NCBI GenBank assembly: GCA_032249735.1
Contig: JAVVHA010000004.1
Location: forward strand, 27,268-91,267
Direction of reading: 5' to 3'
DNA: 64,000 nucleotides
Source: Dehalococcoidia bacterium
GTDB lineage: Bacteria; Chloroflexota; Dehalococcoidia; SM23-28-2; HRBIN24
Position numbers and translations under genes: made by a program. How positions within the stretch are numbered: the stretch's first letter is position 1; every line of letters starts with the position of its first letter. Shown here one piece after another: positions 9,058 through 43,384 of this stretch. Under the pieces are notes generated by a model. The model saw only the letters and a list, made by a program, of their open reading frames with translations. It was not told the origin of the DNA and did no database searches.

Positions 9058-9149
9058 TGGCGGAGGGAGCGGGATTCGAACCCGCGAGGGGGCTTTCGCC
9101 CCCCACCCGCTTAGCAGGCGGGCGCACTCGGCCACTGTGCGATCCCTCC
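9058..9149 (-). tRNA. tRNA-Ser (anticodon GCU), class II with long variable arm, CCA encoded
   Basis: The reverse complement folds by hand. Acceptor GGAGGGA/TCCCTCC, D stem GCAC/GTGC, anticodon stem CCCGC/GCGGG with loop CTGCTAA. Variable arm GGGGGC-GAAA-GCCCCC, T arm GCGGG-TTCGAAT-CCCGC, 3' GCCA. Confidence 0.95.
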
Positions 9150-13287: not shown

Positions 13288-13571
13288 GACGCCACCTTCT
13301 CCTTAAAGGCTTGGGCATAGGCCAGGAGGGCCTGGCGCTCCTGGGGGCCGATGGTGGTGCGCAAGGCACGAGCCAGGCGGTCCTTCTTGAGGGCCTCCTC
13401 CCAGCAGTGGTAGCGGGGGCAGATGTACGCACCCCGCCCCGACTTCTTACCAGTGGGGTCCACCTCCACCTTCCCCTCCAACGTGCGAACGATGCGCACC
13501 AGCTCCCGCTTAGCAGTGACGCCTCGGCACCCCACGCAGGTGCGCATGGGCACATGCTTCCCTCTGGCCAT
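13284..13571 (-). CDS. ylxR: YlxR/RnpM family (DUF448) RNA-binding protein
   Basis: [21 protein letters not shown]...GRGAYICP. Lies between nusA and infB as usual. Confidence 0.9.
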
Positions 13572-25557: not shown

Positions 25558-26205
25558 CTAACCCTGGTCCAAACGACGGGCCAGGAAGGCGGCGGCCTGG
25601 GACCTCCGCCGCAGGTTGAGCTTGGAGAGGATGTTGGACACGTAATTCTTCACCGTCTTCTCCGAGAGGTAAAGCTCTTGGGCGATCTCCTTATTGGTCT
25701 TACCTTCGGCGATGAGAGCTAGGATGCGCCTCTCCTGGGGGGAGAGGGAAGAGAACTCGTCCCGAGCCCCGGAGGCCATCTGGCGCAGCCGCTCCAGCAC
25801 CTGGGCCGTGACGCTGGGGTCCAGGAGGGACTCGCCACGGGCCGCCCGCTCGATGGCCTCCGAGAGGGTCTGGCTGCGGGCCTGCTTGAGGATGTAGCCG
25901 GCAGCCCCGGCCATGATGGAGCCGAAGAGGGCCTCATCGTCGGCGAAAACGGTAAGCATGATGACCTGCACCTCCGGTAGCTCCTGCTTGATCTCGCGGC
26001 AGGCCTCCACTCCTGAGCCATCGGGGAGGCGGACGTCCATCACCACCACGTGAGGGCGGGTGCGGCGGGCGGCCTCCACCGCCTCGGCCACCGTGCCGGC
26101 CTCCCCTACCACCATGAACTGGGGGCGCCGCTCTAAGATAGTCCGCAGGCCCATGCGCACCACCTCATGGTCGTCCACGATGAGCACCTTGATGGGCTCC
26201 TTCAT
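25558..26205 (-). CDS. NarL/FixJ-family response regulator (REC + LuxR HTH)
   Basis: IKVLIVDDHEVVRMGL, VVVMDVRLPDGSG, and a C-terminal LSPQERRILALIAEGKTNKEIAQELYLSEKTVKNYVSNIL. Confidence 0.95.
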   Translation of the reverse strand: MKEPIKVLIVDDHEVVRMGLRTILERRPQFMVVGEAGTVAEAVEAARRTRPHVVVMDVRLPDGSGVEACREIKQELPEVQVIMLTVFADDEALFGSIMAGAAGYILKQARSQTLSEAIERAARGESLLDPSVTAQVLERLRQMASGARDEFSSLSPQERRILALIAEGKTNKEIAQELYLSEKTVKNYVSNILSKLNLRRRSQAAAFLARRLDQG

Positions 26206-27545
26206 GCCTCCCCCTCCCTTATGGGCACTTCCAGACGCACATGGGTCCCCCGCCCGGGGGCACTATCGATGACCAGGCGGGCATCCAGGGCCCTTGCCCG
26301 GTCGGCCATGTTGCGCATGCCCTGGCGCGTGCGGTCCCGGGGGGCCTGTGGATCGAACCCCACCCCATCATCCGCCACCTCCAGGATAAGGGTGGGACGG
26401 TGGTAGGCCAAACGCACCACCAGATGGTTGGCCTGGGCATGCTTGATGACGTTGCTAATGGCCTCTTGGGCCACGTGATAGATGCCCAGGGCTTCCTCCT
26501 CCCGCAGGGGAGGCAAGGGCCCTTCGGCCTCCAGACGGACCTCCAGCCCGCCGGTGGCCCGCGCCTCCTCCAGCAGCTCCCGCACCGCCCTTCGCAGGTC
26601 ACCCACCTGAGAGGAGGCGGGGCGAAGGTCATAGATGTAATGGCGCAGGTCCCTGATGACCCGATCGAGGTCGTCGATGGCCCTCTCCAGGGCCCACCGC
26701 ACGGGCGAGCCTTCGTCCACCTCCTCGCCAGCTGCCTCCAGGCCCAAGGCGACGGCATAAAGGGACTGGATGACCCCATCGTGCAAGTCCATAGCGATGC
26801 GCTCCCGCTCCTCCAGGAGGGCCAAGCTGCGCATGCGGTCGTAAAGGCGGCTCGTCTCCACGGCCACGGCCGCCCAGTTGGCGAAGGCAGCCAGGAGCTG
26901 GGCCTGGTCGCGGCCCAAGGGAGTAGGGGCCCGATTCCCCACCAAGAGGACCCCTAGCATCTTCCCTTTGGCCGAGAAGGGCACGGCCACCAAAGACCCT
27001 AGCTCCACCCCCTCTAGGACGGCAGGCCTCCCTTCCAGCAGGGGCTCACGGCGACAATCGCTCACCACCAAGGGCTGGGCCATCCGCACCACCAGGCCTT
27101 GGGGGCCCTCGTTGGCTGGGAGGGGATCCCAGGCCCCACCCCTCTCCTTCAGGCCCCGCTGGGCGGCCAGATGCAGCTCCTGCCCCGTGGGGTCCAGAAG
27201 CATGAGGACGGCCACATCGGCCTGCAGGAGGTGACAGGCTCTCTCCACCACCGACTCCAGCAGGCCATCCACATCGGGCGAAGCCGTCACCTCCTGCCCC
27301 AGCTCGAAGAGGGAGCGCCACTCCTCGGCCCGCCTTTCCAGCTGGACCTGCATCCTCTCCAGCATGGAGAAGATGAACCAGGCGAAGGCCACAATACCCA
27401 GGGCAGCCACGCTGCCTGCTACGGCGAAGGCGACGGCATCGGTCAGGGCGGGGAGGAGGACGAGATGGAGGACGAGGCCCAGGCCCACCACAAACGCCAG
27501 AGGAGCCGCCACCGCCACCCAACGCAGGGCCCTCAGGCTGCCCAT
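26202..27545 (-). CDS. Membrane-anchored GAF-domain sensor histidine kinase (HisKA_3/NarX-DevS type)
   Basis: Two N-terminal TM helices and a GAF-like middle region. H-box ERIAMDLHDGVIQSLYAV, N-box EAISNVIKHA, G-box DDGVGF. Confidence 0.9.
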   Translation of the reverse strand: MGSLRALRWVAVAAPLAFVVGLGLVLHLVLLPALTDAVAFAVAGSVAALGIVAFAWFIFSMLERMQVQLERRAEEWRSLFELGQEVTASPDVDGLLESVVERACHLLQADVAVLMLLDPTGQELHLAAQRGLKERGGAWDPLPANEGPQGLVVRMAQPLVVSDCRREPLLEGRPAVLEGVELGSLVAVPFSAKGKMLGVLLVGNRAPTPLGRDQAQLLAAFANWAAVAVETSRLYDRMRSLALLEERERIAMDLHDGVIQSLYAVALGLEAAGEEVDEGSPVRWALERAIDDLDRVIRDLRHYIYDLRPASSQVGDLRRAVRELLEEARATGGLEVRLEAEGPLPPLREEEALGIYHVAQEAISNVIKHAQANHLVVRLAYHRPTLILEVADDGVGFDPQAPRDRTRQGMRNMADRARALDARLVIDSAPGRGTHVRLEVPIREGEA

Positions 27546-27552
27546 CTCCCCT

Positions 27553-28434
27553 TTAGTCTACATCAGGGGACAGGCGGTGAGATAACTCACGTGGGCGCAC
27601 CAGAAGACAAGGCAAGGGGGAGCGCTGGAGGATGGCATGGGCCACGCTCCCCAGGGGCCAGGGGCCACCGCCGCGCCCGTGGGTGGAAAGGACCATGAGC
27701 CCTGCGCCCACCTCCTGGGCCAGGGCCAGGATGGAGGAGACGGGGTGCCCCACCACCGCCTGAGGGATGGCCTTCACCCCCTCTCTTTCCAGCCGCCTCG
27801 CCTCCTCCCTCAGGCAGGCCAGGGCCCTTTGCCGCTCCTTCTCCAGCCATGGATGGGCCTCCTCCGAGAGCCCCTCCACCGCCACCACCTGGGCCAACAC
27901 CAGTACCGAACCCAGGGCCTGGGCCAGCTCCCGGGCCACGGGCAGGGCAGCCCGAGACAAGGCTGAGCCGTCCGTGAGCAGCAGGATGCGCCGAGGAGGC
28001 CAAAGGGCCCGCTGCCCTGGGCGCACCAGCAAGACCGGGCACTGGCTCCACTGGGCTATCCGCTGGGCCACTGCACCCTTGGCCCAAGGGGCCGGGGCAG
28101 AAGGAGGCTCATCGGCCAGCGCCACCATGTCCACCTCCCACCGCTCAGCCCACCGCAGGATGCAATAGGCGGGCTGGCCGTAGGCCACCTGCGTCCGCGC
28201 CTCCACCCCTAGGTCCTCCAACTCCCTCCTCTTGCGGTCCAAATAGACGTGGGCCCACGTTGTCTCCCGGCCCAGCTCCCGGCGCTGACGGAAATCCGTC
28301 AGATGGCTTGTGGGGTCAATGACCAGCAACAGGTAGAGGAGGGCAGCGGTGCGGGAGGCGAGGGTCAGGCCATAGAGGAGGGCCTCCTCCGCCTGGGGCG
28401 AGCCATCCAGGGCCACCAGCAGCGACCGAACCAT
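27553..28434 (-). CDS. Tandem universal stress protein (two UspA domains)
   Basis: LLVALDGSPQAEEAL and LLLTDGSALSRAAL starts, plus a C-terminal LMVLSTHGRGG ATP-binding-type motif. Start trimmed to MVRSLLVALDG at 28434. Confidence 0.85.
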   Translation of the reverse strand: MVRSLLVALDGSPQAEEALLYGLTLASRTAALLYLLLVIDPTSHLTDFRQRRELGRETTWAHVYLDRKRRELEDLGVEARTQVAYGQPAYCILRWAERWEVDMVALADEPPSAPAPWAKGAVAQRIAQWSQCPVLLVRPGQRALWPPRRILLLTDGSALSRAALPVARELAQALGSVLVLAQVVAVEGLSEEAHPWLEKERQRALACLREEARRLEREGVKAIPQAVVGHPVSSILALAQEVGAGLMVLSTHGRGGGPWPLGSVAHAILQRSPLPCLLVRPRELSHRLSPDVD

Positions 28435-28588
28435 GCCCCACCTCCCGCGGCATTTACATAATACCAGGGCGGGCAGGCAAGAAATCCCGGCCCTTGCGCC
28501 CACAACTATTAGGACTTTCGGCCTAGTCTCCATAGGGAAACGTGGCCCTACCCTCCCTTGCGCCATTCCCCATACCCTGGGTCTCGAG

Positions 28589-33127: not shown

Positions 33128-33859
33128 TCATCCCCACAGGCCACGGGGGAGGACATCGCCCCAAAAGAGGGCCACCACGCCCCCCAACACTAGGAAAGGG
33201 CCGTAGGGGAGGTACTGGCCGCGGCGGACGGCCCGCAAGAGAAGGAGGAGCAGCACCACCACCCCACCAGCCAACATCCCCAACAAGAGAGCCGAGATCA
33301 CCCTGGGGAAGCCCACCACCGCCCCCAGGAAGGCGGCCAGCTTCACATCTCCAGCTCCCAGACCGCCCCGCATGGCCACATAGGCCACCCCAAAGGCCAC
33401 GCCCCCAAAGGCCGCCCCTGCTAGGGCCTCCAGAGGCCCCCGCCCTGGCCAGGCCCAGGAGAAGGCCATGGCTAGGAGGGTGCCGGGATAGATGATGCGA
33501 TTGGGCAGGAGCCTTCGCTCCAGGTCGGCCAGAGCCAGGGCCAGGAAAAGGGCACCGAAAAGGGTCCCTAGGAGGGCAGGCCCGGCGGAGGGCCCCAATC
33601 TCGCATATGAGGCCGCCCCCAGCCCCGCCCCGCCTAGGGGCAAAGCCAGGGCCCGCCACGACAGGGCAGCGCCACAGCGGGGACAGGTGAGGAGGGAGCC
33701 GATGGAGCCTACCACTGGCCACAGGAACAACCCCCTCGCCTCCAGCTTGCACACCCCACACCGTGGCCATGGCGGAAGAACCCCACCCCCAAAGGCCCCA
33801 TCCCAGGCCAGGTCCAGCAGGTGGCCCATCACCAGGCCCAAAAGCACAGGCGCCCACAT
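33128..33859 (-). CDS. Type IV prepilin peptidase (A24 family)
   Basis: N-terminal Zn-finger-like CGVC...CPRCG, catalytic-region motif GLGAGDVKLAAFLG, multiple TM helices. Confidence 0.85.
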   Translation of the reverse strand: MWAPVLLGLVMGHLLDLAWDGAFGGGVLPPWPRCGVCKLEARGLFLWPVVGSIGSLLTCPRCGAALSWRALALPLGGAGLGAASYARLGPSAGPALLGTLFGALFLALALADLERRLLPNRIIYPGTLLAMAFSWAWPGRGPLEALAGAAFGGVAFGVAYVAMRGGLGAGDVKLAAFLGAVVGFPRVISALLLGMLAGGVVVLLLLLLRAVRRGQYLPYGPFLVLGGVVALFWGDVLPRGLWG

Positions 33860-34080
33860 CTCCCTGCCGCCCTATATACCACACCGCCTGCCCCACCAGA
33901 ACCCCCATCGCTGTAGGGCAAAACCTTACTTAAGGAGGGGCTTGTGACCTACACTAGTGCTGACCGGAGGCCCCTGGGTATGAGCCCCTATGGCCCAGAT
34001 AATTCATGCCAAATGGCCCATAGCCCAGCCACAAGGGGGGTATAACAATGGGTTCAGATGCGGCAAATTAAGGTGGGGTG

Positions 34081-36660
34081 ATGGCCATGGCCCTAAAAAT
34101 AAGCCGCAGGACATTCCTCAAGGGCACAGCAGCAGCAGGAGGGGCAGCAGCGGCCGCCACCTTCTTATATCGCGGCCTGGACACCCTAGCAGGACCTGAT
34201 GGGGAGGCCCAAGCCCAGCTGCCCCCAGGCGAGGAGTGGATCGCCACCCTCTGCTGGATCGGCAAGCAAGACTGTGGGGTGCGGGCGCGCCGCATCAACG
34301 GGCGGGTGGTGAAGCTGGAGGGCAACGGCGCCCACCCCCGCAACCTGGGGACCCTCTGCCCCAAGGGGATGGCCCAGATCACCGCCCTTTACGACCCCCA
34401 CCGGGTGCGCACCCCCCTCATCCGCACCAACGACAAAGGGGTACCCGGCCAGTTCCGCCCCGCTTCCTGGGACGAGGCCCTGGACCTGGTGGCCTCCAAG
34501 ATACGCGAGGCCCGCGCCAAGGACCCCAAGTTAGTGGTGTGGCAGAAAGGGCGCAGCAAGTCGGCCGCCCTATACGATAACTCCTTCGCCACCGCCCTGG
34601 GGGCAACGAAGCTTCACCACGGCGCCTTCTGTTCCGACGCCGGCTACCGGGCCTCCGAATACACCCTAGGCCTCAACGGCGTCCTCCACCCCGATTACAA
34701 GCACTGCCGCTACATCATCCACTGGGGCTACAACCTCACCGCCGGCGGCGGCAACAAGCTCTGCTGGATCACCTTCCCCCGGCAGGTGGTGGAGGCCAAG
34801 GAGAGGGGGGCCAAGATCGTGCACATCGACCCCCGCCTCCACTCCGCTGGGCCCCACGCCGACTGGTGGATACCCATCCGCCCCGGCACCGACCTGGCCC
34901 TGGCCCTGGCCCTTATAAACCGGGTTCTGGAGCGTGGGCTGGTGGACAAAGACTATCTTTTGCAGTACACCAACGCCCCCTTCCTGGTCCAGGAGGACGG
35001 CACCTTCCTGCGGGTGGACGGGCGGGAGCAAGTATGGGACGAGGCGGCTGGCCAGCCAGTCCCCTATGACGTCGCCACGCGACCCTTCCTGGACGGCGTC
35101 TTCGAGTGGCAGGGGAAGAGGCTCCGCACCGCCTTCCGAGTCCTGCGGGAGCACGTGGCCCCCTATACACCCGAATGGGCCTCCCAGATCTGCGATATCC
35201 CCGCCCGCGACATCCGCCGCCTGGCCGACGAGATGGTGGACAACGCCCTTATCGGCAGCACCGTGGTCGTAGACGGGGTCGAGATCCCCCACCGGCCAGT
35301 GGCCATCCACACCTACCACTTCGCCCAGCAGGAGCTAGGGTTTCAGGCCGTGCGCGCCATGCTCATCCTCATGATGCTGCTGGGGGCGCCGGGGGCAGTG
35401 GGAGGGCAGTTCGTGGACTTCGGCTGGAAGAAGCACGCCAACTTCGACAAGTTCGGCCAGGTGACGGTAAAAGACCCCCCCTACAACATCTGGCTGGAGA
35501 ACTCGCCCTTCTTCCCCATCAACTCCAATAGCTCGGCCGTGGTGGCCCTCGCCCTTAGAGACCCCCAGGGATGGCAGGTAGACCCCAACAAACTGCCCCA
35601 GGTCATGATCATTCACATGACCAATCCCATCGTGGCCTTTGGGTCCAGCCCGGACATCCTGGAGGGATTCAAGCGCATCCCCTTCATCGTGGTGCTGGAC
35701 CCCTGGCTCTCTAAGACGGCCGACCTGCTGGCCGACGTGGTCCTGCCCGTCTCCACCCTGGAGAAGTACGAGGGCCCCTCATCGGCCACCGATGGTTATG
35801 TGGACGCCGTGGCCCTCCGCATCCCTGTCATGGAGCCCTTAGGCGAGAGCCGCAGCGAGCTGGAGATCTACCTGGACCTGGCGGAGCGCGTGGGCGTCCT
35901 GAACGCCTATCTGGAGGCCCTCAACAAGGAGCTGGGCCTTAAGCCTCCCAACGTCCTGGCCCCCGGCCGCAAGCCTACCCCCAGGGAGGTGTTCGAGCTG
36001 TGGGCCAAGTCCCAGGGGGTGGCAGAGGGGCTGGCCTACTTCGAGAAGAACGGGGTACTGGTTAAGGGCCGCCTCACCCCAGACAAGATCTATGGCTACG
36101 CCCAGAAGCCTCCCTTCGGCGGCATCCGCCACCGGCTGTATGGGGAGTCCCTCCTCTTGATGCAGCGGGAGGCGCGGCGGCGGGGGGTGGACCAGGTCTT
36201 CTGGCGCGATTACACCCCCCTGCCCGTCTGGCGAGAGCCCACCATGGAGCGCTCCCCTCGCCAATATGACCTGTACCTCATCTCCTTCAAGCTTATTGAG
36301 TTCAAGCAGGGCCGGGGCACCAACCTGCCTCTGGTGGCGGAGCTAGCCCCAGAGCAGAGGCTGTGGATGCACCCCCGCGCAGCCCAGGAGCGGGGTATCA
36401 AGGACGGCGACCTGGTGTGGGTGGAGTCCCACAACGCCTTCACCGGGGAGACCAGGCGCGTCCAGGTGAGGGTGGCCCTCACCGAGGGCATCCGGCCGGA
36501 CACGGTAGGCCTTCCCCACCACTATGGAGATATCGCTCGTCACCCCTGGAGCCAAAACCAGGGCCCCGGGGCAGCCCAACTGTTCTTTACCGGCCCTGGC
36601 TACATGGCCAACACCGCCGACCAGTCCTTCCAGGTGAAGGTACGGGTATACAAGGCCTGA
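34081..36660 (+). CDS. Tat-exported molybdopterin (bis-MGD) oxidoreductase catalytic subunit, Psr/Phs/Arr/Ttr-like clade
   Basis: Twin-arginine signal KISRRTFLKG. N-terminal Fe-S motif region CWIGKQDCG...LCPKG. Probable Mo-ligand region HHGAFCSDAGY. 860 aa. The ORF opens with GTG at 34078, and ATG at 34081 or 34087 is also possible. Confidence 0.9.
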   Translation: MAMALKISRRTFLKGTAAAGGAAAAATFLYRGLDTLAGPDGEAQAQLPPGEEWIATLCWIGKQDCGVRARRINGRVVKLEGNGAHPRNLGTLCPKGMAQITALYDPHRVRTPLIRTNDKGVPGQFRPASWDEALDLVASKIREARAKDPKLVVWQKGRSKSAALYDNSFATALGATKLHHGAFCSDAGYRASEYTLGLNGVLHPDYKHCRYIIHWGYNLTAGGGNKLCWITFPRQVVEAKERGAKIVHIDPRLHSAGPHADWWIPIRPGTDLALALALINRVLERGLVDKDYLLQYTNAPFLVQEDGTFLRVDGREQVWDEAAGQPVPYDVATRPFLDGVFEWQGKRLRTAFRVLREHVAPYTPEWASQICDIPARDIRRLADEMVDNALIGSTVVVDGVEIPHRPVAIHTYHFAQQELGFQAVRAMLILMMLLGAPGAVGGQFVDFGWKKHANFDKFGQVTVKDPPYNIWLENSPFFPINSNSSAVVALALRDPQGWQVDPNKLPQVMIIHMTNPIVAFGSSPDILEGFKRIPFIVVLDPWLSKTADLLADVVLPVSTLEKYEGPSSATDGYVDAVALRIPVMEPLGESRSELEIYLDLAERVGVLNAYLEALNKELGLKPPNVLAPGRKPTPREVFELWAKSQGVAEGLAYFEKNGVLVKGRLTPDKIYGYAQKPPFGGIRHRLYGESLLLMQREARRRGVDQVFWRDYTPLPVWREPTMERSPRQYDLYLISFKLIEFKQGRGTNLPLVAELAPEQRLWMHPRAAQERGIKDGDLVWVESHNAFTGETRRVQVRVALTEGIRPDTVGLPHHYGDIARHPWSQNQGPGAAQLFFTGPGYMANTADQSFQVKVRVYKA

Positions 36661-36676
36661 GGGGAGGTAGAGGGAT

Positions 36677-37423
36677 ATGCCCCGCTATGGCATGACCATC
36701 GACCTGAGCCGGTGCATGGGGTGTCGGGCCTGCATGGTGGCCTGCAAGGTGGAGAACAACACCCCAGAGGGCCACTTCTGGATGTACGTCTTCCGGTTCG
36801 AGGAGGACGAGTTCCCCAGGACGCGCATTTGGTTCCTGCCCCGCCCCTGCCAGCACTGCGACAACGCCCCCTGCGTGAAGGTCTGCCCCGTGGGGGCCCG
36901 CTACAAGCGGGAGGACGGCCTGGTGCTGACCGACTTCCAGCGGTGCATCGGCTGCCGCTATTGCGAGGTGGCCTGCCCTTATGGGGTCAACTACTTCCAC
37001 TGGAAGCACCCCAACAAGGCCCAGTACCTGGACTATAACGACGACCCAGAGATTAAGAGCCGCACCAGTGGCGCCATGCCCCCCTACCGCAACCCCGACC
37101 AGGACCTGCGCTACGGCCCCGAGGGGCGGCTGACGGCCGGCGCCGCCCACTACCGGGGCGTCATCGGCAAGTGCACCTTTTGCGTCCACCGCGTTGAGAA
37201 GGGCCTGGAGCCGGCCTGCGTGGCCAACTGCCCCGTGCGGGTGTTCGAGTTCGGCGACCTGGACGACCCCGATAGCGTCGTCTCCCAGAAGCTGCGCTCC
37301 TCCCCCCGTTTCCGCCTCCTGGAAGGGGAGGGGACGGAGCCACGGGTGTTCTACCTCAATGGCAACCCGCCCAGCCCTGAGGTGCGGGAGGTAATGCCGG
37401 TGAAGGGAGGTAGGAAGTCATGA
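36677..37423 (+). CDS. Four-cluster 4Fe-4S ferredoxin subunit (PsrB/DmsB-like)
   Basis: CMGCRACMVAC, CQHCDNAPCVKVCP, CIGCRYCEVACP, CTFC...CVANCP. Confidence 0.9.
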   Translation: MPRYGMTIDLSRCMGCRACMVACKVENNTPEGHFWMYVFRFEEDEFPRTRIWFLPRPCQHCDNAPCVKVCPVGARYKREDGLVLTDFQRCIGCRYCEVACPYGVNYFHWKHPNKAQYLDYNDDPEIKSRTSGAMPPYRNPDQDLRYGPEGRLTAGAAHYRGVIGKCTFCVHRVEKGLEPACVANCPVRVFEFGDLDDPDSVVSQKLRSSPRFRLLEGEGTEPRVFYLNGNPPSPEVREVMPVKGGRKS

Positions 37424-38718
37424 CCGGAAGAGCCATGCCCCTCCCCTATGGCGTGGGACGTATAACGCCCGGATGGTTAGCCCTGGCGGCCGGCGCCGCC
37501 GCCCTGGTGGGCCTTGGTGCCTTCGCCTATGCGCGACAGGCGCTGGAAGGGCTCATTGTGACCGGGATGCGCGACTGGGGCACCATGGGCGGCGCAACCT
37601 GGGCCCTCTACATCTCCTTTGACGTCTATTTCGTGGGCGTGAGCTTTGCTGGCATCACGGTGGCAGCCTTCATCAGGCTTTTGCGTCTGGACTACCTGCG
37701 GCCCATCTCACGGGTGGCCGAGCTTCTGACCATCGTATCGCTTATCCTGGCCGCCTTGTCGGTGCTGGCCGATTTGGGCCAGCCCTTGCGGGGCATTGTC
37801 AACCTGTTCCGGTACGCACGGCCCCAGTCGCCCTTCTTTGGCACCTTCACTATGGTCATCGCCGGCTATCTGTTCGCCAGCCTGGTCTACTTCTACCTGG
37901 CGGGGCGGAGGGACGCCTACCTCATGGCCCAGCATCATTCCCCCCTGCGGTGGTTCTACCGAGCATGGGCCGCTGGCTACCGGGACACTCCCCAGGAACG
38001 GGAGCGGCACCAGCGGACCAGCTTCTGGCTGGCCTTGGGCATCATCCCTCTGCTTATAACCGCCCACTCCACCCTGGGCTTGGTCTTCGGCCTCATGGGG
38101 GGGAGGCCGGGGTGGTTCAGCGCCCTACAGGCCCCTGGCTTCGTGGTGCTGGCCGGGATCTCGGGCATCGGCCACATCGTGGTGCTGGCGGCCTTGCTGC
38201 GGTGGGCCCTGGGGACGCCTGAGCGGCCGGGGATGGCGGCGTTCCGCTGGCTGGGGCTGGCGTTGCTGGTGCTGGGCCTCATCTACGTATACTTCACCAT
38301 GGTGGAGATGATAACGGCGGGCTATGCCGGCCGGGAGCACGAACAGGAGCTGGCCAAACTCGTCCTCACCGGCTATTATGCGCCCTACTTCTGGGTGGGC
38401 ATGGGGGCCCTGGCGCTGGCCATCGGCCTGCTGGCCATGCAGGCCCTTAGTGGCCGATGGAGCATCCCCCTGCTGGTGGCCAGTGGCGTGCTGGTGAACG
38501 TGACGGCGGTGGCCAAACGGCTCATCATCGTGGTGCCCTCTCTCACCCATGGCTCCCTCCTGCCATATCGCACAGGGCTGTACATCCCCACCTGGGTGGA
38601 GGGATCCATCATCGCTGGGCTCATGGGGCTGGGGGCGCTCATGATCCTCTTGTTCATGAAGGTCTTCCCCATCATGGAGGTGCCGGAGCCTAGTGGCGCA
38701 GAGGAGGTGAGGGGATGA
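37420..38718 (+). CDS. NrfD/PsrC-family quinone-interacting membrane subunit (large, ~10 TM form)
   Basis: 432 aa with about 10 hydrophobic helices. ATGA overlap with the Fe-S subunit gene. No heme-binding CxxCH motif. Confidence 0.85.
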   Translation: MTGRAMPLPYGVGRITPGWLALAAGAAALVGLGAFAYARQALEGLIVTGMRDWGTMGGATWALYISFDVYFVGVSFAGITVAAFIRLLRLDYLRPISRVAELLTIVSLILAALSVLADLGQPLRGIVNLFRYARPQSPFFGTFTMVIAGYLFASLVYFYLAGRRDAYLMAQHHSPLRWFYRAWAAGYRDTPQERERHQRTSFWLALGIIPLLITAHSTLGLVFGLMGGRPGWFSALQAPGFVVLAGISGIGHIVVLAALLRWALGTPERPGMAAFRWLGLALLVLGLIYVYFTMVEMITAGYAGREHEQELAKLVLTGYYAPYFWVGMGALALAIGLLAMQALSGRWSIPLLVASGVLVNVTAVAKRLIIVVPSLTHGSLLPYRTGLYIPTWVEGSIIAGLMGLGALMILLFMKVFPIMEVPEPSGAEEVRG

Positions 38719-38942
38719 TCTCCCAACGCGCCCTGATGGCCCTAATGGTGCTGGCGGCGGGGGTGGCCCTTATGATCGTCAGCTACTTCCTCCTGGCCAC
38801 CCCCTGGGGCTTTCCGCCGGAGTCAGAGGACTTCTCCAACCCCCGCGTGGTCTTCGCCCCCTTGATATTCATCGTGGGGGTGATAATGGCGTTTGGATCG
38901 GCCATCGTCTATGAGTTATGGCCGGAGAGGAGAAGGGGATGA
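38715..38942 (+). CDS. Small two-TM membrane protein, translationally coupled within the oxidoreductase operon
   Basis: 75 aa with two hydrophobic helices. ATGA overlaps on both sides. Confidence 0.5.
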   Translation: MISQRALMALMVLAAGVALMIVSYFLLATPWGFPPESEDFSNPRVVFAPLIFIVGVIMAFGSAIVYELWPERRRG

Positions 38943-39595
38943 GGCGGTGGGCCCGCCTGGCCCGCCTGCGGCAGGGGATGTATAGGCTCTTGGCCCTATC
39001 TTTCCTGCCCCCCGCAGACGACAGGTGGGGCCAGATGGTAGCAGGGGCACGCTACCTTCGCCAGGACGATGGCATAGCGCGCCCCTTGCCCTTCTACAGC
39101 CCGTGGCGCCTCTTCTCCCAGGCCATCCTGAAGTCCCACCCTCAGGAGGTATCATCCGAACATGTCCGCCTGTTTGGGCCTGGGGGCCCTGTGCCCCTCT
39201 GGGAAACGGCCTATCTGACCCTCGACCCTCTGTCCCAGGGGGAGGTGGTGGCGGATATCACCCAGGCCTATTTGCGGGCGGGCCTGCGCCCCTCCTCCCA
39301 GGGGCCCGATCATCTGAGCGCCGAGCTGGAGTTCATGAGCTTCCTTTGCGGGAGCGAGGCCACGGCATGGGAGGAGGGGGAGGTGACATCCCTGCGCCGC
39401 CAGCTCAAACGCCAGGGTAGGTTCCTGGACCGGCATCTCTGCCTCTGGCTGCCCCACCTGGTGCGGAGGCTGGAGACGGCCCACGCCCTGTCCCTCTTCC
39501 TGGAAGGGGCCAAGGCTGCCTGGGCCCTGGCCTGTCACGACCGCGACATGGCCCATCTCCTGGACACTGAGCTGGCCCAGGCGACGGGGGGATAG
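38939..39595 (+). CDS. TorD/DmsD/NarJ-family redox enzyme maturation chaperone
   Basis: HVRLFGPGGPVPLWETAYL and GPDHLSAELEFMSFL (family signature PDHL..EL.F). Start trimmed to the ATG at 38939. Confidence 0.8.
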   Translation: MRRWARLARLRQGMYRLLALSFLPPADDRWGQMVAGARYLRQDDGIARPLPFYSPWRLFSQAILKSHPQEVSSEHVRLFGPGGPVPLWETAYLTLDPLSQGEVVADITQAYLRAGLRPSSQGPDHLSAELEFMSFLCGSEATAWEEGEVTSLRRQLKRQGRFLDRHLCLWLPHLVRRLETAHALSLFLEGAKAAWALACHDRDMAHLLDTELAQATGG

Positions 39596-39599
39596 GCCA

Positions 39600-41102
39600 G
39601 TGACCGTGCTGGTCCTCCTGTGCCAAGACCTGGCTCACCATGGCCTCTCCCCTCAGGCCCTGGCCAGGTTTGCGGAGGAGGAGGGGGCACAGGCCGTGGT
39701 GGTGCCTGGCCTCTGCCTCCATCCAGACCGGATACGGAGAGCAGCAGCAGGAGCAGAGGCGCTGGTGATAGCCACCTGCCACCAATGGCAGGCCGAGGGG
39801 GCTATAGAGCGCCACGCCCGTGCTGCAGGCATCAGCCCCCTGGCCCTGCAGGTGGTCCCCCTGGCCCGCATCTGTCAAGGCGATGCCGACCCCATGGGGA
39901 AGGCCCAGGCCGCCCTGGCGGGGGCCTTGGCCAGGGCCCGCGCCTTCCCCGGGGCGCGCCCCGAGAACCTCCGCCCCGCCCTCCCATCCAGGGGGCCGCG
40001 GGTGAGCAGGCGGGCCCTCCTCTCCCTTCCCTCCCTTGTGTACCGGCCGGTGCCCACCCTACACAAGGGGCTATGTGCCGCCGAGCGGGGATGCCGCCAT
40101 TGTGTGTCCCAGTGCCCCCATGGGGCCCTCTACGAGGACGGGGGCATCATTCACCTCAGGCGGGAGGCCTGCACCTCTTGTGGCCTCTGCGTCACTGCCT
40201 GCCCCCATCAGGCCCTGCAGATGCCGGGCTGGGGTCCACCCGAGGTGGCCGCCCAGATGGCCGCCCTGCTGGAACGGGGAGGAGGACGGGGCCTGGCCTT
40301 TATCTGCCCCCAGAGCCCTCCCCCGGGCGGTCCCTGGTTAGCCGTGAACGTGCCCTGCGCCGCTGCCGTCCCATTGGCTGCCATGCTGACCCCCCTCTCG
40401 CGGGGGGCGCCGGCGGTAGCCATCGTCCACTGCGGGGCCCTATGCCGCTCGGGACGCCGCTCCCAGGTGGAGGAGAAGCTGGGCTTCGCCCAGGCCCTCC
40501 TCGAAGCCCTGGGCCTGGGGAAGGGACGCATCTTCCTGGCCGAGACTTCGGAGAAAGGGACACTTCTTCCATCGCCCGTGGGGCCTGCCGCAGCGACCAC
40601 CTCCAGGCCAGGGCTCCCCCACCCATCCCTGGCCGGGGCAGGAGCCGATGCCGCAGCGGTAATGGAGCTGTCCCATGGCCAGGACGTCTACCTCCTCCAT
40701 ACGGGCTCCCCCCTAGGCATGGTGCAAATAGACCCCGAGGCGTGCACCGTCTGTGGCACCTGCGCCGGCGCCTGCCCCACGAGCGCCATCCGCTACACCG
40801 AGGAGGAGGCAAGGGTATCCCTGACCTTCGACCCGCGGGTGTGCATCGCCTGCGGGCAGTGCCTGGAGGTGTGCCCAGAGCGGGAGAGGGGGGCCATCGT
40901 CCTGCGGCGAGGGGTGGACACGACCTTCCTGCGTCGAGGCCCCGAGACCGTGGCGCAAGACCGACTAGTCCTCTGCCGACGCTGTCAGGGACCGGTGGCC
41001 AGCCAGAAGATGGTGCAGCGGGTCATAGCCATGCTGGGGCCACAAGTAAGCACTCAACGCCTGGCCGAGCTCTGTAGCCAGTGCCGTGGGCTCCCCTTCT
41101 GA
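39600..41102 (+). CDS. Cytoplasmic multi-cluster Fe-S protein: two 2x[4Fe-4S] ferredoxin modules separated by Cys-containing alpha/beta regions (possibly MvhD/FlpD-like)
   Basis: CRHCVSQCP, CTSCGLCVTACP, CTVCGTCAGACP and CIACGQCLEVCP. No signal peptide or Tat motif. GTG start at 39600. Confidence 0.7.
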   Translation: MTVLVLLCQDLAHHGLSPQALARFAEEEGAQAVVVPGLCLHPDRIRRAAAGAEALVIATCHQWQAEGAIERHARAAGISPLALQVVPLARICQGDADPMGKAQAALAGALARARAFPGARPENLRPALPSRGPRVSRRALLSLPSLVYRPVPTLHKGLCAAERGCRHCVSQCPHGALYEDGGIIHLRREACTSCGLCVTACPHQALQMPGWGPPEVAAQMAALLERGGGRGLAFICPQSPPPGGPWLAVNVPCAAAVPLAAMLTPLSRGAPAVAIVHCGALCRSGRRSQVEEKLGFAQALLEALGLGKGRIFLAETSEKGTLLPSPVGPAAATTSRPGLPHPSLAGAGADAAAVMELSHGQDVYLLHTGSPLGMVQIDPEACTVCGTCAGACPTSAIRYTEEEARVSLTFDPRVCIACGQCLEVCPERERGAIVLRRGVDTTFLRRGPETVAQDRLVLCRRCQGPVASQKMVQRVIAMLGPQVSTQRLAELCSQCRGLPF

Positions 41103-41129
41103 GGCCCACGCCTGTGCCATAATGAGGCC

Positions 41130-42182
41130 GTGGAGCTAGCCATCGTCGGCCTTCGCGCAGCAGGCAAGACCACCCTTTTCCAGGCCCTGGCGGGAGGGCC
41201 CGTGGCAGGGGCGGTGGCCACCGTGCCCGTGCCCGACCATCGCCTGGAGCAGCTGGCAGCCCACTTCCGCCCCCGCAAGGTGACCCCACCGGAGGCCCTC
41301 CTCCACGATCTCCCCCCCTGGCCGGACCATGGCCAACGCCTCCCCCAAGAGGCAGCCACCGCCCTGGCCCGCGCCGATGCCCTCATCCTGGTGGTGCGGG
41401 CCTTTCACCGTCCCGACGTGCCCCACCCGCAGGGGCACGTGGATCCCCAGCGCGATTACCTGAACCTGGAGCTGGAGCTACTGTACCACGACCTGGACAT
41501 CGTGACCCGGCGCCTGGAGAAGGTGGCTAAGGTGGCCACCTCTGCCCCCCCAGGTGAGAGGAAGGCCGCCCAACGCGAGCGCCGAACCCTGGAGAGGGTC
41601 AAGGCCTGCCTGGAGTCAGAACGCCCCCTGAGGGAAGAGGAGCTGTCCCCCGGGGAAAGAAAGCTCCTCTCTCCTTTCGGCCTCTTGAGCCTACGCCCCT
41701 TGCTGGTGGTGGTAAACTCCGACGACCCTGCCCAGGGCATGGAGATGGTTCAGGCCCTGGAGAGCCGCCACGGCAGGGCCCGCACCGCTTTCGCCTCCCT
41801 CTGTGCCCAGCTGGAGCTAGAGCTGGCCCAGATGGAGAAGGAGGAGGCGGTGGCCTTCCGCCAGGAGCTGGGCCTGCCCCCGGAGGGACCCAGGGCCTTG
41901 CTGCGGCAGGCCATGGACCTCCTGGAGCTGGTCACCTTCTATACGGTGGTGGGGGAGGAATGCCGCGCCTGGCTCGTCGCCAAGGGCACCACGGCCCTGG
42001 AGGCGGCAGGCAAGATCCACTCCGACATGGCCCGCGGCTTCGTGCGGGCGGAGGTCATCGCCTGGGACCGCCTGCTGGCGGCGGGCACCCTACACGAGGC
42101 CAGGGCGCGCGGAATGGTGCGGGCCGAGGGAAAGTCCTACCTGGTGCAGGACGGCGACGTGCTACACATCCTGTTCCACTAA
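41130..42182 (+). CDS. YchF-family P-loop NTPase with degenerate switch I/II regions
   Basis: Walker A GLRAAGKTTLF. C-terminal YchF/TGS-like AGKIHSDMARGFVRAEVIAWD...GKSYLVQDGDVLHILFH. The FPFCTIEPN and DIAGL-type motifs are absent. Confidence 0.75.
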   Translation: MELAIVGLRAAGKTTLFQALAGGPVAGAVATVPVPDHRLEQLAAHFRPRKVTPPEALLHDLPPWPDHGQRLPQEAATALARADALILVVRAFHRPDVPHPQGHVDPQRDYLNLELELLYHDLDIVTRRLEKVAKVATSAPPGERKAAQRERRTLERVKACLESERPLREEELSPGERKLLSPFGLLSLRPLLVVVNSDDPAQGMEMVQALESRHGRARTAFASLCAQLELELAQMEKEEAVAFRQELGLPPEGPRALLRQAMDLLELVTFYTVVGEECRAWLVAKGTTALEAAGKIHSDMARGFVRAEVIAWDRLLAAGTLHEARARGMVRAEGKSYLVQDGDVLHILFH

Positions 42183-42668
42183 TTAACGGCCCCTCTCCCA
42201 CACCCAGGGGGGCATGCTGGCCTGGGCTACAGCATCATAGGGCGGCAGATAGGGCTTGATGTCCAGCACCGGCGTGCCATCTATAGCATCTAGGCCTCGC
42301 ACCCACAGGACATGCCCCCTCACCCGCAGAAGGCGGCAAACGGTGAGGCCGATGGGGTTGGGCCGTAGCTGGCTCCGGGTGGCGAAGACGCCCCGCACGG
42401 GCAGGCCCCCGCCCTCGGCCAGTGGGGCTTGCAGGCGGCCCTCCCGCATCTCCGCCGGCACCTGGTGCATGAAGAAAAGAACGAAGATATGGGAGAACCC
42501 CTCAAGGCCCACAAGCCCCTGGGCCATACCCCGTCGCAGGACGATGCGCGCCTCCACCTCCTCCCAACCATGGGGGCGGGGGTGCCTTACCGGGCTTCTC
42601 ACCACCCCGATGGGCTCCAGGGTGATAGGGGAAAGGGGGCCAGAGGCCTCAGGTTCAAAGAAGCGCAT
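42183..42668 (-). CDS. tRNA (m6t6A37) methyltransferase TrmO/TsaA family
   Basis: PIGVVRSPV, GLEGFSHIFVLFFMH, GVFATRSQLRPNPIGLTV, GLDAIDGTPVLDIKPY. Start trimmed to the ATG at 42668. Confidence 0.85.
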   Translation of the reverse strand: MRFFEPEASGPLSPITLEPIGVVRSPVRHPRPHGWEEVEARIVLRRGMAQGLVGLEGFSHIFVLFFMHQVPAEMREGRLQAPLAEGGGLPVRGVFATRSQLRPNPIGLTVCRLLRVRGHVLWVRGLDAIDGTPVLDIKPYLPPYDAVAQASMPPWVWERGR

Positions 42669-42694
42669 GACGGCCCGCCAGATATCTCTTCCCT

Positions 42695-43384
42695 TCACAG
42701 GACCACCGGCACAGGGCTGTCCAAGCGCACCTCCTGGGGGTCCACTAGGCAACGATAGGCCAGCACAGCGACCCCTTCCCCAGCTGCCCACCGCAAGGCC
42801 TCGGCGAAGCGCGGGTCAGCGCCCACGTGCGCTGCAAAGGAGACGACATCAGGCCTCTGGATGACGAACACCACCGCTGCCCCCAGGCCCAGGCGGCGAG
42901 CAGCCACCAAGGCTGCCAGGTGGCGCCTTCCCCGCTCCGTGGGCGCATCGGGGAACAACCCCACTCCGTCCACCACTAGGGTGACGGACTTGGCCTCCAC
43001 CATAATATCGCCCTGGGGCCCCGCCAGGAGGAGGTCCAGACGCACCCCCTGGAAGGAGGGCTCGGTGGCGGCCACCCTTTGTCCGGCGAAGGCCTCCAAC
43101 CTCCCCTCCTCCACCGCCTCCCGCAGCAGGTGGTTGGGAAGGCGGGCATCGGCCGAGACCCACACCCCATCCACCTGCACCAGCACCAGGTCGAAGGGGG
43201 TCTTGCGTCCCTGCCCCGCCCTGGGGGCCAGGAGGACAGGAGCCCCCGGCACCATGAGCTCCTGGAGGCGACCGGAGTTGGCCAGATGGGCCTGGGCCCT
43301 TCCCCCAGCCACCTCCACCTCCACGGCGAAGCGGTTGAGGCGGGCCACCAACCTGGCCGATACTAGACCCTGAGGCAACCGCAC
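42695..43384 (-). CDS. sfsA: Sugar fermentation stimulation protein SfsA family (nuclease-fold DNA-binding protein)
   Basis: ARLNRFAVEV...AHLANSGRL...VEAKSVTL. I place the start at an in-frame GTG at 43384, giving 229 aa, the usual SfsA size. The track ORF extends to 43555. Confidence 0.75.
   Translation of the reverse strand: MRLPQGLVSARLVARLNRFAVEVEVAGGRAQAHLANSGRLQELMVPGAPVLLAPRAGQGRKTPFDLVLVQVDGVWVSADARLPNHLLREAVEEGRLEAFAGQRVAATEPSFQGVRLDLLLAGPQGDIMVEAKSVTLVVDGVGLFPDAPTERGRRHLAALVAARRLGLGAAVVFVIQRPDVVSFAAHVGADPRFAEALRWAAGEGVAVLAYRCLVDPQEVRLDSPVPVVL

Follow-up and report, generated by a model that had tools for sequence, protein, structure and literature searches.

Six co-directional genes, here named A to F, in a 64,000-nucleotide stretch of the genome of a Dehalococcoidia bacterium (contig JAVVHA010000004.1 of assembly GCA_032249735.1; this whole 64-kb stretch is called the window below) very probably encode a periplasm-facing, quinone-linked complex iron–sulfur molybdoenzyme, whose catalytic subunit falls into a clade outside the characterised ones. 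The clade is biochemically uncharacterised and probably mis-annotated, and the locus in the window is an ordinary member of it. On comparative grounds it is tentatively proposed that the members of this clade, which is widespread, are respiratory arsenic oxidoreductases of a type so far unrecognised and separate from Arr, Arx, Aio and the Ttr-like arsenate reductases, with a three-cysteine FS0 site, a modular electron partner and a maturation pair made of a TorD-like chaperone and a polyferredoxin that carries a mimic of a twin-arginine translocation (Tat) signal; our confidence in this full proposal is clearly below even.

The conserved gene unit

The region studied (34078-42182 of the window) holds seven open reading frames (ORFs), A to G, all on the forward strand:

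34081..36660, + strand: A, catalytic subunit (859 residues from the ATG at 34081, 860 from the GTG at 34078)
36677..37423, + strand: B, four-cluster ferredoxin subunit (Fer4_11 match, 16 Cys in four motifs)
37420..38718, + strand: C, NrfD-type quinone-interacting membrane subunit (PF03916, 10 hydrophobic segments)
38715..38942, + strand: D, 75-residue subunit with two transmembrane (TM) segments
38918..39595, + strand: E, TorD/NarJ-family redox-enzyme maturation chaperone (PF02613)
39600..41102, + strand: F, predicted cytoplasmic polyferredoxin of 500 residues (conserved Cys pattern, AlphaFold2 (AF2) model)
41130..42182, + strand: G, degenerate YchF-like NTPase, outside the conserved module (TIGR00092 below cut-off)

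A sequence-only reading of this DNA had described seven co-directional genes, and all seven ORFs were found at the coordinates it gave; its domain descriptions were borne out by Pfam and NCBIfam scans and by a hydropathy count of TM segments, and, as it had said, none of the seven proteins contains a CxxCH (cytochrome) motif. The junctions from A/B to F/G measure +16, -4 (ATGA), -4 (ATGA), -25, +4 and +27 nt, and the claim that all are ATGA overlaps or gaps of at most 28 nt therefore holds except at D/E, which is a 25-nt overlap and not ATGA. The length of 860 residues given for A is correct if translation starts at the GTG at 34078; the true start is probably the ATG at 34081, which has an AGGTGG ribosome-binding site 8 nt before it and gives 859.

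The conserved unit has six genes and not the seven that had been proposed. From genomes with the family signature 80 loci were fetched, all from metagenome-assembled genomes (MAGs), and compared by tblastn with the seven window proteins; gene content was counted in the 47 loci whose sequence extends at least 7.6 kb beyond the start of A. Of these 47, 40 carry E and F downstream on the strand of A, C and D are present in 35, and the complete B–F set in 29. G is adjacent in one locus alone, L001, the nearest relative (76% identity), which is syntenic with the window across the whole neighbourhood, from methylmalonyl-CoA mutase to GyrB; two further contigs of ~1 Mb carry the same six genes, A–F, followed by unrelated genes on the opposite strand. 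A survey of this kind had been suggested for the 500-residue Fe–S gene and the YchF-like gene: the former co-occurs with the module, the latter does not beyond L001, an outcome that the earlier reading had itself named as speaking against its claim for that gene. The recurrence of the order A-B-C-D-E-F in loci of many phyla indicates that the arrangement is not due to chance, and since six genes recur and G joins them only in L001, the functional unit is taken to be A–F, read here as probably one operon.

The variable part of the unit is the membrane anchor. The loci of Methylomirabilota, Burkholderiales and some others have, in place of C and D, a ~130-residue protein with a signal peptide and two CxxCH motifs, that is, a dihaem cytochrome c (at 6044-6430 in L020 and 13335-13730 in L022). 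E and F are retained in C/D-replaced or C/D-less loci (L020, L022, L024, L026, L030, L049 and L051). The dihaem domain of L049 (8782-9549), a Clostridia MAG, is fused to a copper-amine-oxidase-N-like domain, and L051, a Nitrospinae MAG, has nothing in place of C and D (13337-13475). Most loci have D behind C, and none that lacks C has D; a few loci have a divergent NrfD without D. D is gained and lost with C, and E and F go with A and B. One Dehalococcoidia MAG (L017, 15697-17533) has a split module, with a histidine kinase and a response regulator between D and E and a gap of ~800 bp between A and B.

B has no signal peptide and is presumably co-exported with A; its identity across the fetched loci is 55-89%, and its best NCBIfam matches, ArrB and DsrO, are both below cut-off. 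C and D contain no Cys, and NrfD subunits carry no cofactors (PMC8076601).

Placement of the catalytic subunit

The features of A on which its placement depends are the following:

34096..34158, + strand: twin-arginine signal (KISRRTFLKG...), PF10518 match at residues 7-27
34252..34275, + strand: FS0 motif C59-W-I-G-K-Q-D-C66, invariant in the family alignment, with the remaining ligand C94 at 34357-34359
34540..34560, + strand: WQKGRSK, residues 155-161, basic pocket motif, invariant in the alignment and present in 76 of 80 loci
34615..34650, + strand: HHGAFCSDAGYR, residues 180-191, with the predicted Mo ligand Cys185, from alignment to PsrA and ArrA

Pfam assigned to A the domains TAT_signal, Molybdop_Fe4S4 (PF04879), Molybdopterin and Molydop_binding (E 3e-26 for PF00384, 1e-15 for PF01568). 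Domains for a Mo/W bis-pyranopterin guanine dinucleotide cofactor, a Cys ligand, a Tat signal, an Fe–S partner and a membrane quinol subunit are all present, which places the enzyme among the Cys-ligated complex iron–sulfur molybdoenzymes. The assignment to the Cys-ligated type had been made from the motif HHGAFCSDAGY; the motif is there, and its Cys185 is family-invariant and aligned to the Mo-ligand Cys173 of Thermus thermophilus PsrA and to Cys193 of ArrA, with His181 aligned to ArrA His189. The Tat motif was found in 56 of the 80 family ORFs as called, many of the remainder being truncated or mis-started. The family alignment has a mean column identity of 70%.

The FS0 site sets the family apart. 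In A, Gly62 takes the place of the second Cys of the canonical CxxCxxxC, which leaves three Cys (C59, C66, C94) instead of the four of a canonical FS0 (CxxCxxxC...C), though PF04879 still matches. The motif CW[IVL]GKQ[DE]C was found in 76 of the 80 loci, and the three-Cys form CWIGKQDC is common to a sister enzyme from Natronorubrum, whereas Aquifex SreA, Arr, Arx and Psr retain four Cys. The missing Cys suggests that the cluster is [3Fe-4S] or that its fourth ligand is another residue, for instance Asp/Glu65. The WQKGRSK motif aligns with (R/K)GRY of ArrA, GRGWG of ArxA and the GR motifs of Ttr and Srd, and has no counterpart in Psr or Phs. An AF2 model of A, built from a 16-sequence alignment, was too weak (predicted local distance difference test (pLDDT) 61.7, predicted template modelling score (pTM) 0.57) and was left out of all reasoning on the fold or the active site.

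A reaches no curated equivalog: the NCBIfam scores are 276 bits against a cut-off of 694 for PhsA, the best match, 138 against 1600 for ArrA (NF041714) and 60 against 1750 for TtrA. None of the seven proteins A–G reaches an NCBIfam equivalog cut-off, so that the module cannot be filed under a named enzyme. The best match in the PDB is T. thermophilus PsrA (E 2e-42), with good alignment of the N-terminal third only.

The phylogeny that had been recommended for the 860-residue subunit was run as a neighbour-joining (NJ) tree on its N-terminal half, with reference sequences from Supplementary Data S1B of Leu et al. 2020 cut to their first ~400 residues (MAFFT alignment, 367 columns, 100 bootstraps; the deep nodes are weak). 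The window protein, seven family members and two Methanoperedens proteins, ASW-1_01618 and ASW-3_00934, form a clade with 100% bootstrap support; the Natronorubrum enzyme is its sister at 100%, and Aquifex aeolicus SreA, the nearest characterised relative, comes next at 86%. Arr/Arx (100%), Ttr/Srd and the SreA proteins of Acidianus and Sulfolobus form separate, well-supported clades, and the Psr/Phs sequences lie outside the window clade as well. Over its N-terminal half A shares 49-52% identity with the ASW proteins, 34.7% with Aquifex SreA (366 residues), 33% with an ArxA-like protein, 32% with Moorella PsrA, 29% with ArrA and 27-30% with the SreA proteins of archaea. The defining features of Arr/Arx, Psr/Phs, Ttr/Srd and the archaeal Sre enzymes were tested and not found in A, which is therefore not counted as a member of any of them; what separates A from Psr/Phs is the low PhsA score, the position in the tree and the anchor of 10 helices instead of 8.

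The clade is large. At E<=1e-20, A has homologues in over 1,300 protein clusters; the best 120, with identities of 58-99%, come from MAGs of many phyla; their database names are generic or guesses, for example 'polysulfide reductase chain A' or 'SreA'. A scan of one genome per species found the family signature in at least 238 species-level genomes, with carriers in Chloroflexota, Armatimonadota, Methylomirabilota, Acidimicrobiia, Nitrospinota, Bacillota and several archaeal lineages, from hot springs, groundwater and marine sediments. Wells et al. 2023 remarked that MAGs contain Cys-type lineages without a place in the known groups. The claim that the module is an undescribed system thus stands insofar as the clade has no characterised member, and has to be narrowed insofar as the two Methanoperedens members were already published as putative SreABC (Leu et al. 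2020, mBio).

Relation to published systems

The Methanoperedens 'SreABC' systems are the closest published ones. Besides the clade that they share with the window enzyme (49-52% over the first 400 residues, 100% bootstrap), their catalytic subunits carry the motifs CWIGKQDC, WQKGRSK and H(H/G)GA(F/Y)CSDAGYR, and the gene order is the same, with the chaperone four genes behind the Mo subunit (operon table of Leu 2020). They differ in being archaeal and laterally acquired; they are known from MAGs only, and their 'Sre' label derives from tree proximity to Aquifex SreA alone. Aquifex SreA itself resembles A in its Cys ligand, its GR motif and the His at the C-4 position, and is unlike it in having no Tat signal, in facing the cytoplasm (Table 1 of PMC10100899), in its four-Cys FS0 and in having no WQKGRSK. 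The substrates of Aquifex SreABC are given as sulfur, polysulfide and tetrathionate, and no sensor of the arsenic type discussed below is described for it.

T. thermophilus PsrABC (PDB 2VPW-2VPZ) shares with the module the aligned Cys ligand and a Tat-exported AB dimer on an NrfD-family anchor. Its catalytic subunit is 29% identical over the N-terminal half, has a four-Cys FS0 and neither WQKGRSK nor a GR motif; PsrC has 8 helices against the 10 of C, and there are no D or F genes.

The best plasmid match of the module is an uncharacterised cluster on a megaplasmid of the haloarchaeon Natronorubrum bangense (DV706_RS18680-18705; L081, plasmid NZ_CP031306, 685184-696098). All six genes are found there in unchanged order, with identities of 31% for A, 30% over the full length for C and 28% for F, and the cluster includes the CWIGKQDC FS0, a 64-residue two-TM analogue of D and a long F-like 'hydrogenase iron-sulfur subunit'; as said, its enzyme is the sister of the window clade at 100%. 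The cluster is much more divergent, its A (939 residues) and F (701 residues) are larger, its F lacks the twin-arginine-like motif described below, and its A, unlike that of the window, keeps a Lys at the position of ArrA K198. The flanks hold arsR, mobA, an ArsC-type phosphatase, arsD and arsA.

The arsenic systems Arx (arxB2ABCD + arxXSR) and Arr (arrAB(C)(D) + arrXSR) are like the clade in having a Tat Mo subunit, a four-cluster Fe–S subunit, a TorD-like chaperone, a variably present X-S-R trio and, in the catalytic subunit, the aligned Cys ligand, the His at C-4 and a GR motif. Arx matches the module further in its 10-helix NrfD-type anchor (ArxC), an extra ferredoxin (ArxB2) of unknown role and its chaperone ArxD. 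A is unlike both in lying outside their clade, in its score of 138 against 1600 bits with the ArrA model, in its three-Cys FS0 and in the replacement of several ArrA contacts. Acidianus ambivalens SreABCDE has a similar complement, with a Mo subunit, an Fe–S subunit, a 10-helix anchor, an additional Fe–S protein, SreD, and the NarJ-like chaperone SreE, both of unknown function (PMC8551704, PMC5317093); its catalytic subunit belongs to another clade (27-30%), and its last two genes stand in reversed order.

The substrate

The substrate had been described as unreadable from the sequence. The comparative context gives a testable lead to the arsenic oxyanions, and the earlier caution remains apt insofar as this lead is circumstantial. 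All ORFs of the 80 flanks were clustered, and beyond A–F only one recurrent gene set emerged, consisting of a ~310-residue periplasmic binding protein (PF12974), a sCache-HAMP-HisKA_3 kinase and a NarL-type regulator. This set abuts the module in 15 related loci of at least six phyla, with both anchor variants, and lies upstream on the same strand, downstream or divergently. When the binding protein of one of these loci (L069) was compared with the PDB, its best match, over the full length, was ArrX, the arsenate sensor of Chrysiogenes arsenatis (E 2e-57), followed by AioX (1e-36), PtxB (1e-18) and PhnD (1e-8). Across the 15 loci, the binding proteins (for example at 6823-7746 in L069, 7996-8919 in L006 and 6743-7696 in L022) have identities of 34-46% with ArrX and 28-37% with AioX, ArrX and AioX being 33% identical to one another, and the AioX pocket residues Y88, C106 and Y131 are kept in all 15.

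AioX, ArxX and ArrX make up a subfamily that senses arsenic oxyanions and that, together with the S and R proteins, controls the aio, arx and arr operons (Badilla et al. 2018, PMC5908839); the ArrR proteins of Chrysiogenes and Firmicutes are FixJ/NarL-like (PMC5908839), as is the regulator beside the module. On a jumbo extrachromosomal element of Methanoperedens (Nat Commun 2026), arrR, arrS and arrX are independently reported upstream of 'sreA' (PMC13444090), a counterpart of the sensor set beside the module in the 15 related loci; the window is without them. The ASW MAGs came from arsenic-contaminated groundwater (Leu 2020), and the Natronorubrum sister cluster sits between arsR with the ArsC-type phosphatase on one side and arsD with arsA on the other. 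Within A, WQKGRSK aligns with the (R/K)GRY region by which ArrA binds arsenate, and His181 with ArrA His189. Non-canonical, Ttr-like arsenate reductases are already known in this superfamily (PMC13608581). Taken together, this context suggests that the substrate of A may be an arsenic oxyanion, a reading that is circumstantial and in which our confidence is somewhat under even.

A number of observations weigh against it. The residues which we take to bind arsenate in ArrA are R165, Y166, H189, S190, K198 and Y210; in A, R159 lies near R165 and H181 corresponds to H189, while S190, K198 and Y210 are not conserved, being replaced by Gly, Tyr (with Arg191 adjacent) and Val. The 64-kb window holds no ArrX homologue and no ars genes detectable with the probes used, and when the ArsR, ArsD, ArsC-type phosphatase and MFS proteins of Natronorubrum were searched against it by tblastn, nothing matched; its nearest two-component system has a GAF-type kinase and lies 8 kb away on the other strand. 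Among the related loci, only about one third have the X, S and R (XSR) genes near the module, and in a Pfam scan of the flanks (137 downstream and 148 upstream ORFs) only mobA, moaA, moeA-mobB and a few multihaem cytochromes recurred; ars genes were not enriched in the bacterial flanks, and no recurrent ars, sulfur-transfer or other substrate-indicating genes were found. Among true arx, aio and arr clusters, too, some have XSR genes and some do not (PMC6549141). ArrX-like sensors may also have ligands outside arsenic systems. The placement of A itself rests on ~367 N-terminal columns in an NJ tree with weak deep nodes, and Aquifex SreA, to which A is closest among characterised enzymes, is a reductase of sulfur, polysulfide and tetrathionate (as cited in Leu 2020).

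The last point leads to the main rival, namely that the enzyme reduces a sulfur compound, be it elemental sulfur, polysulfide or tetrathionate, in the manner of Aquifex Sre or Thermus Psr, only facing the periplasm. Aquifex SreA, at 34.7% over 366 residues and the next sister at 86%, is the nearest characterised relative, the best NCBIfam model is PhsA and the best PDB match T. thermophilus PsrA, an ABC layout with an NrfD anchor is the classic one of Psr and Phs, and the homologues carry the names PsrA or SreA, in line with the SreABC assignment of Leu 2020. The scores behind these names are nevertheless far under the family cut-offs (PhsA 276 against 694), and Aquifex SreA has no Tat signal and a canonical four-Cys FS0. 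Rhodanese, sulfurtransferase and other sulfur genes are not enriched in the 80 flanks, the dedicated sensor of the relatives is of the arsenic XSR type, and many carriers are aerobic or microaerophilic, some with a cytochrome c partner, which fits poorly with low-potential sulfur reduction. We therefore regard sulfur-compound reduction as rather unlikely. A different oxyanion, chalcogen or pnictogen substrate (selenate, selenite, antimonate, tellurate, thiosulfate or thioarsenate), recognised by the ArrX-like sensor either itself or through an analogue, would be compatible with the basic KGRSK pocket, the GR motif being common to Ttr/Srd and Arr/Arx alike, and with the repeated switching of this enzyme class among S, Se, As and Sb (PMC13608581; Table 1 of PMC10100899). 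The binding protein also weakly matches a putative selenate-binding model, and the selectivity of X proteins is not set by pocket conservation alone (PMC5908839). For any single candidate, however, there is no specific positive evidence, the X proteins resemble ArrX more than AioX does and keep the subfamily Cys, and the sister cluster lies in an ars island; such a substrate is thus considered improbable, though it has to be kept in view.

If the arsenic reading is right, the direction of the reaction would depend on the electron partner. With an NrfD anchor and menaquinol, as in the window, arsenate reduction would be expected, the thermodynamically favourable direction for a menaquinone-linked anchor to judge by standard redox potentials, and in relatives with a dihaem cytochrome c in place of C and D, arsenite oxidation would be likelier, since their aerobic lineages fit oxidation better. 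From what is established for this enzyme class, A and B would receive their cofactors before export, the Tat leader of A being held by E in the cytoplasm, after which the AB dimer would be exported by Tat and dock on C and D. Electrons would then pass between the menaquinone pool and the Mo centre via C, the clusters of B and FS0, possibly with proton coupling through C.

The chaperone and the polyferredoxin

E meets the description of a TorD/NarJ chaperone: it matches PF02613 at 74 bits against a cut-off of 22 (E 1.4e-20), has no TM segment or signal and keeps a conserved place beside a Tat Mo enzyme. F, with 28 Cys and likewise without TM segment or signal, has Fer4 matches at residues ~160-210 and 375-430 and a weak FlpD/MvhD match, and its homologues, of which 18 were aligned, carry only the database name 'ferredoxin'. 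The alignment shows three N-terminal Cys, two CxxCxxCxxxC pairs, a four-Cys MvhD-like domain and two further cluster motifs, so that F appears to be built as two repeats of an MvhD/FlpD-like domain plus a 2[4Fe-4S] domain, followed by a C-terminal CxxC...CxxC. The AF2 model of F (pLDDT 90.6, pTM 0.89) gave module-level matches only in a Foldseek search, to HdrA, MvhD, HycF and the FwdF polyferredoxin, and no global match. As modelled, F is a new assembly of known electron-transfer modules, predicted to be cytoplasmic. A profile search with the F alignment yielded almost no additional homologues, the candidate pre-filter being limiting, and no plasmid sequence matched F by tblastn at 1e-6.

One element of F bears on its possible role:

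40005..40022, + strand: internal twin-arginine-like motif SRRALL of F, residues 136-141, with R137 and R138 invariant in the 18-homologue alignment

The form SRRAL(L/F) is invariant in mid-protein, and the linker around it has low pLDDT and is flexible in the model. A motif xRRxx(L/F) stands ~25 residues before the first ferredoxin Cys in nearly all of ~50 F homologues, the protein of L049 being the sole exception seen. A function as export signal was considered and rejected, as the motif is internal, follows a folded 125-residue domain and has no hydrophobic h-region behind it.

Precedents for a maturation role of such a pair are NapF and the binding of NarJ to what remains of a Tat signal in NarG. 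By comparison with these, E and F would form a cytoplasmic maturation or activation pair for A and B, and the conserved RR motif of F might, as a speculation, be a docking site for E, that is, a remnant or mimic of a Tat signal. A joint action of E and F on A and B, in the cytoplasm, is suggested by the cofactor-less nature of NrfD proteins, by the absence of Cys from C and D and by the survival of F where C and D are replaced. For F itself, our confidence in a maturation role is evenly balanced; its absence from 7 of the 47 loci speaks against the role, as it means that F is not indispensable, and an electron wire of at least four clusters seems elaborate for a pure chaperone.

Alternatively, F could be a working electron-transfer subunit. 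Through this cytoplasmic polyferredoxin, the enzyme or the quinone site of C would be connected with a donor or acceptor in the cytoplasm, which would make the complex a transmembrane redox module. It is predicted to have four [4Fe-4S] clusters in addition to MvhD-like and 4-Cys sites, arranged as in the wires of Hdr, Fwd and Hyc, and its gene is tightly operon-linked, with a 4-nt gap behind E. A transmembrane wire would, however, have to run through C and D, which have no haem or Fe–S ligands and no Cys, NrfD being cofactor-less (PMC8076601), and F persists both where a periplasmic cytochrome c takes the place of C and D and where they are absent. F-like proteins also accompany TorD-like chaperones beside unrelated Tat Mo enzymes, and the 7 loci without F count against this role too. 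We hold a function of F in electron transfer to be on the unlikely side, and the maturation role is retained as the working reading.

The suggestion that the accessory genes are without precedent was not upheld. TorD-like chaperones are standard in such molybdoenzyme operons, and extra ferredoxins, their role unknown, are described in arxB2ABCD (PMC6549141) and in Acidianus sreABCDE (PMC8551704, PMC5317093); hypothetical ferredoxins occur in 43% of the surveyed TorD-associated fdh operons (Bay et al. 2015). A distant F homologue of 686 residues was seen in L082 (1670-11061), divergent to genes for DUF3305, DUF3306, a TorD-like protein and a 64-residue protein. The same locus holds an FDH-N-like cluster with a 965-residue Tat Mo enzyme, an Fe–S subunit and a cytochrome b anchor, and genes for TusA, a DsrE-like and a CCG-domain protein lie nearby.

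Gene G and the surroundings of the module

YchF is a universal housekeeping family. G keeps the P-loop (GLRAAGKT) and has the C-terminal TGS/DUF933 domain (PF06071); its switch region reads DLPPWP, no DxxG is present, and it scores 205 bits with TIGR00092 against a cut-off of 279. The sub-cut-off score and the missing DxxG make the earlier label of a degenerate YchF-like protein a fair one. The idea that all seven genes, G included, form one module of an entirely undescribed respiratory system could appeal to the position of G 27 nt behind F on the same strand, with no convincing terminator between them, and to the repetition of this adjacency in L001, which has a 66%-identical copy of G at the same place. 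L001 is syntenic over the whole neighbourhood anyway, and it is the one locus of 47 with G adjacent; the family is not module-specific, and members of the clade are already published as putative SreABC. This idea is hardly credible, and G is, on sequence comparison, an unrelated lineage-specific neighbour.

The module is surrounded by unrelated housekeeping genes, for methylmalonyl-CoA mutase, prepilin peptidase, TrmO, SfsA, a major facilitator superfamily (MFS) transporter and GyrB, and its GC content does not set it apart. A promoter and terminator scan of 33500-42900 gave counts no higher than in shuffled sequence and is therefore uninformative on the limits of the operon, and an Rfam scan of the module found nothing near the gathering score and no molybdenum cofactor (Moco) riboswitch. 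A 485-residue ORF at 39620-41077 (+ strand) overlaps F in another frame; its translation is rich in Pro, Gly and Arg, and it looks like the usual high-GC artefact and not a gene. A cluster at 25558-28566 (- strand), 5.5-8.5 kb upstream of the module, encodes a NarL-type response regulator, a GAF-HisKA_3 histidine kinase and a tandem universal-stress protein. The kinase and regulator were rejected as regulators of the module, as the sensor type is unlike the XSR kinase and the genes are merely syntenic in L001. The sole tRNA of the window is a tRNA-Ser (GCT) at 9058-9149 (- strand).

Significance

The clade had been sighted twice before as 'SreABC', and what is added here is a concrete and testable substrate hypothesis for it. 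Annotation pipelines at present score its members as sulfur or polysulfide reduction; if the arsenic activity is true, many of the 'sulfur reduction' calls in metagenome surveys would be wrong, and a revision would be due of the estimates of which organisms, in aquifers and geothermal waters, mobilise arsenic or immobilise it, including the methane-oxidising Methanoperedens of arsenic-contaminated groundwater. Whatever the substrate, the three-Cys FS0 and the TorD-associated polyferredoxin with its internal twin-arginine motif provide new handles on the maturation and tuning of Tat-dependent molybdoenzymes.

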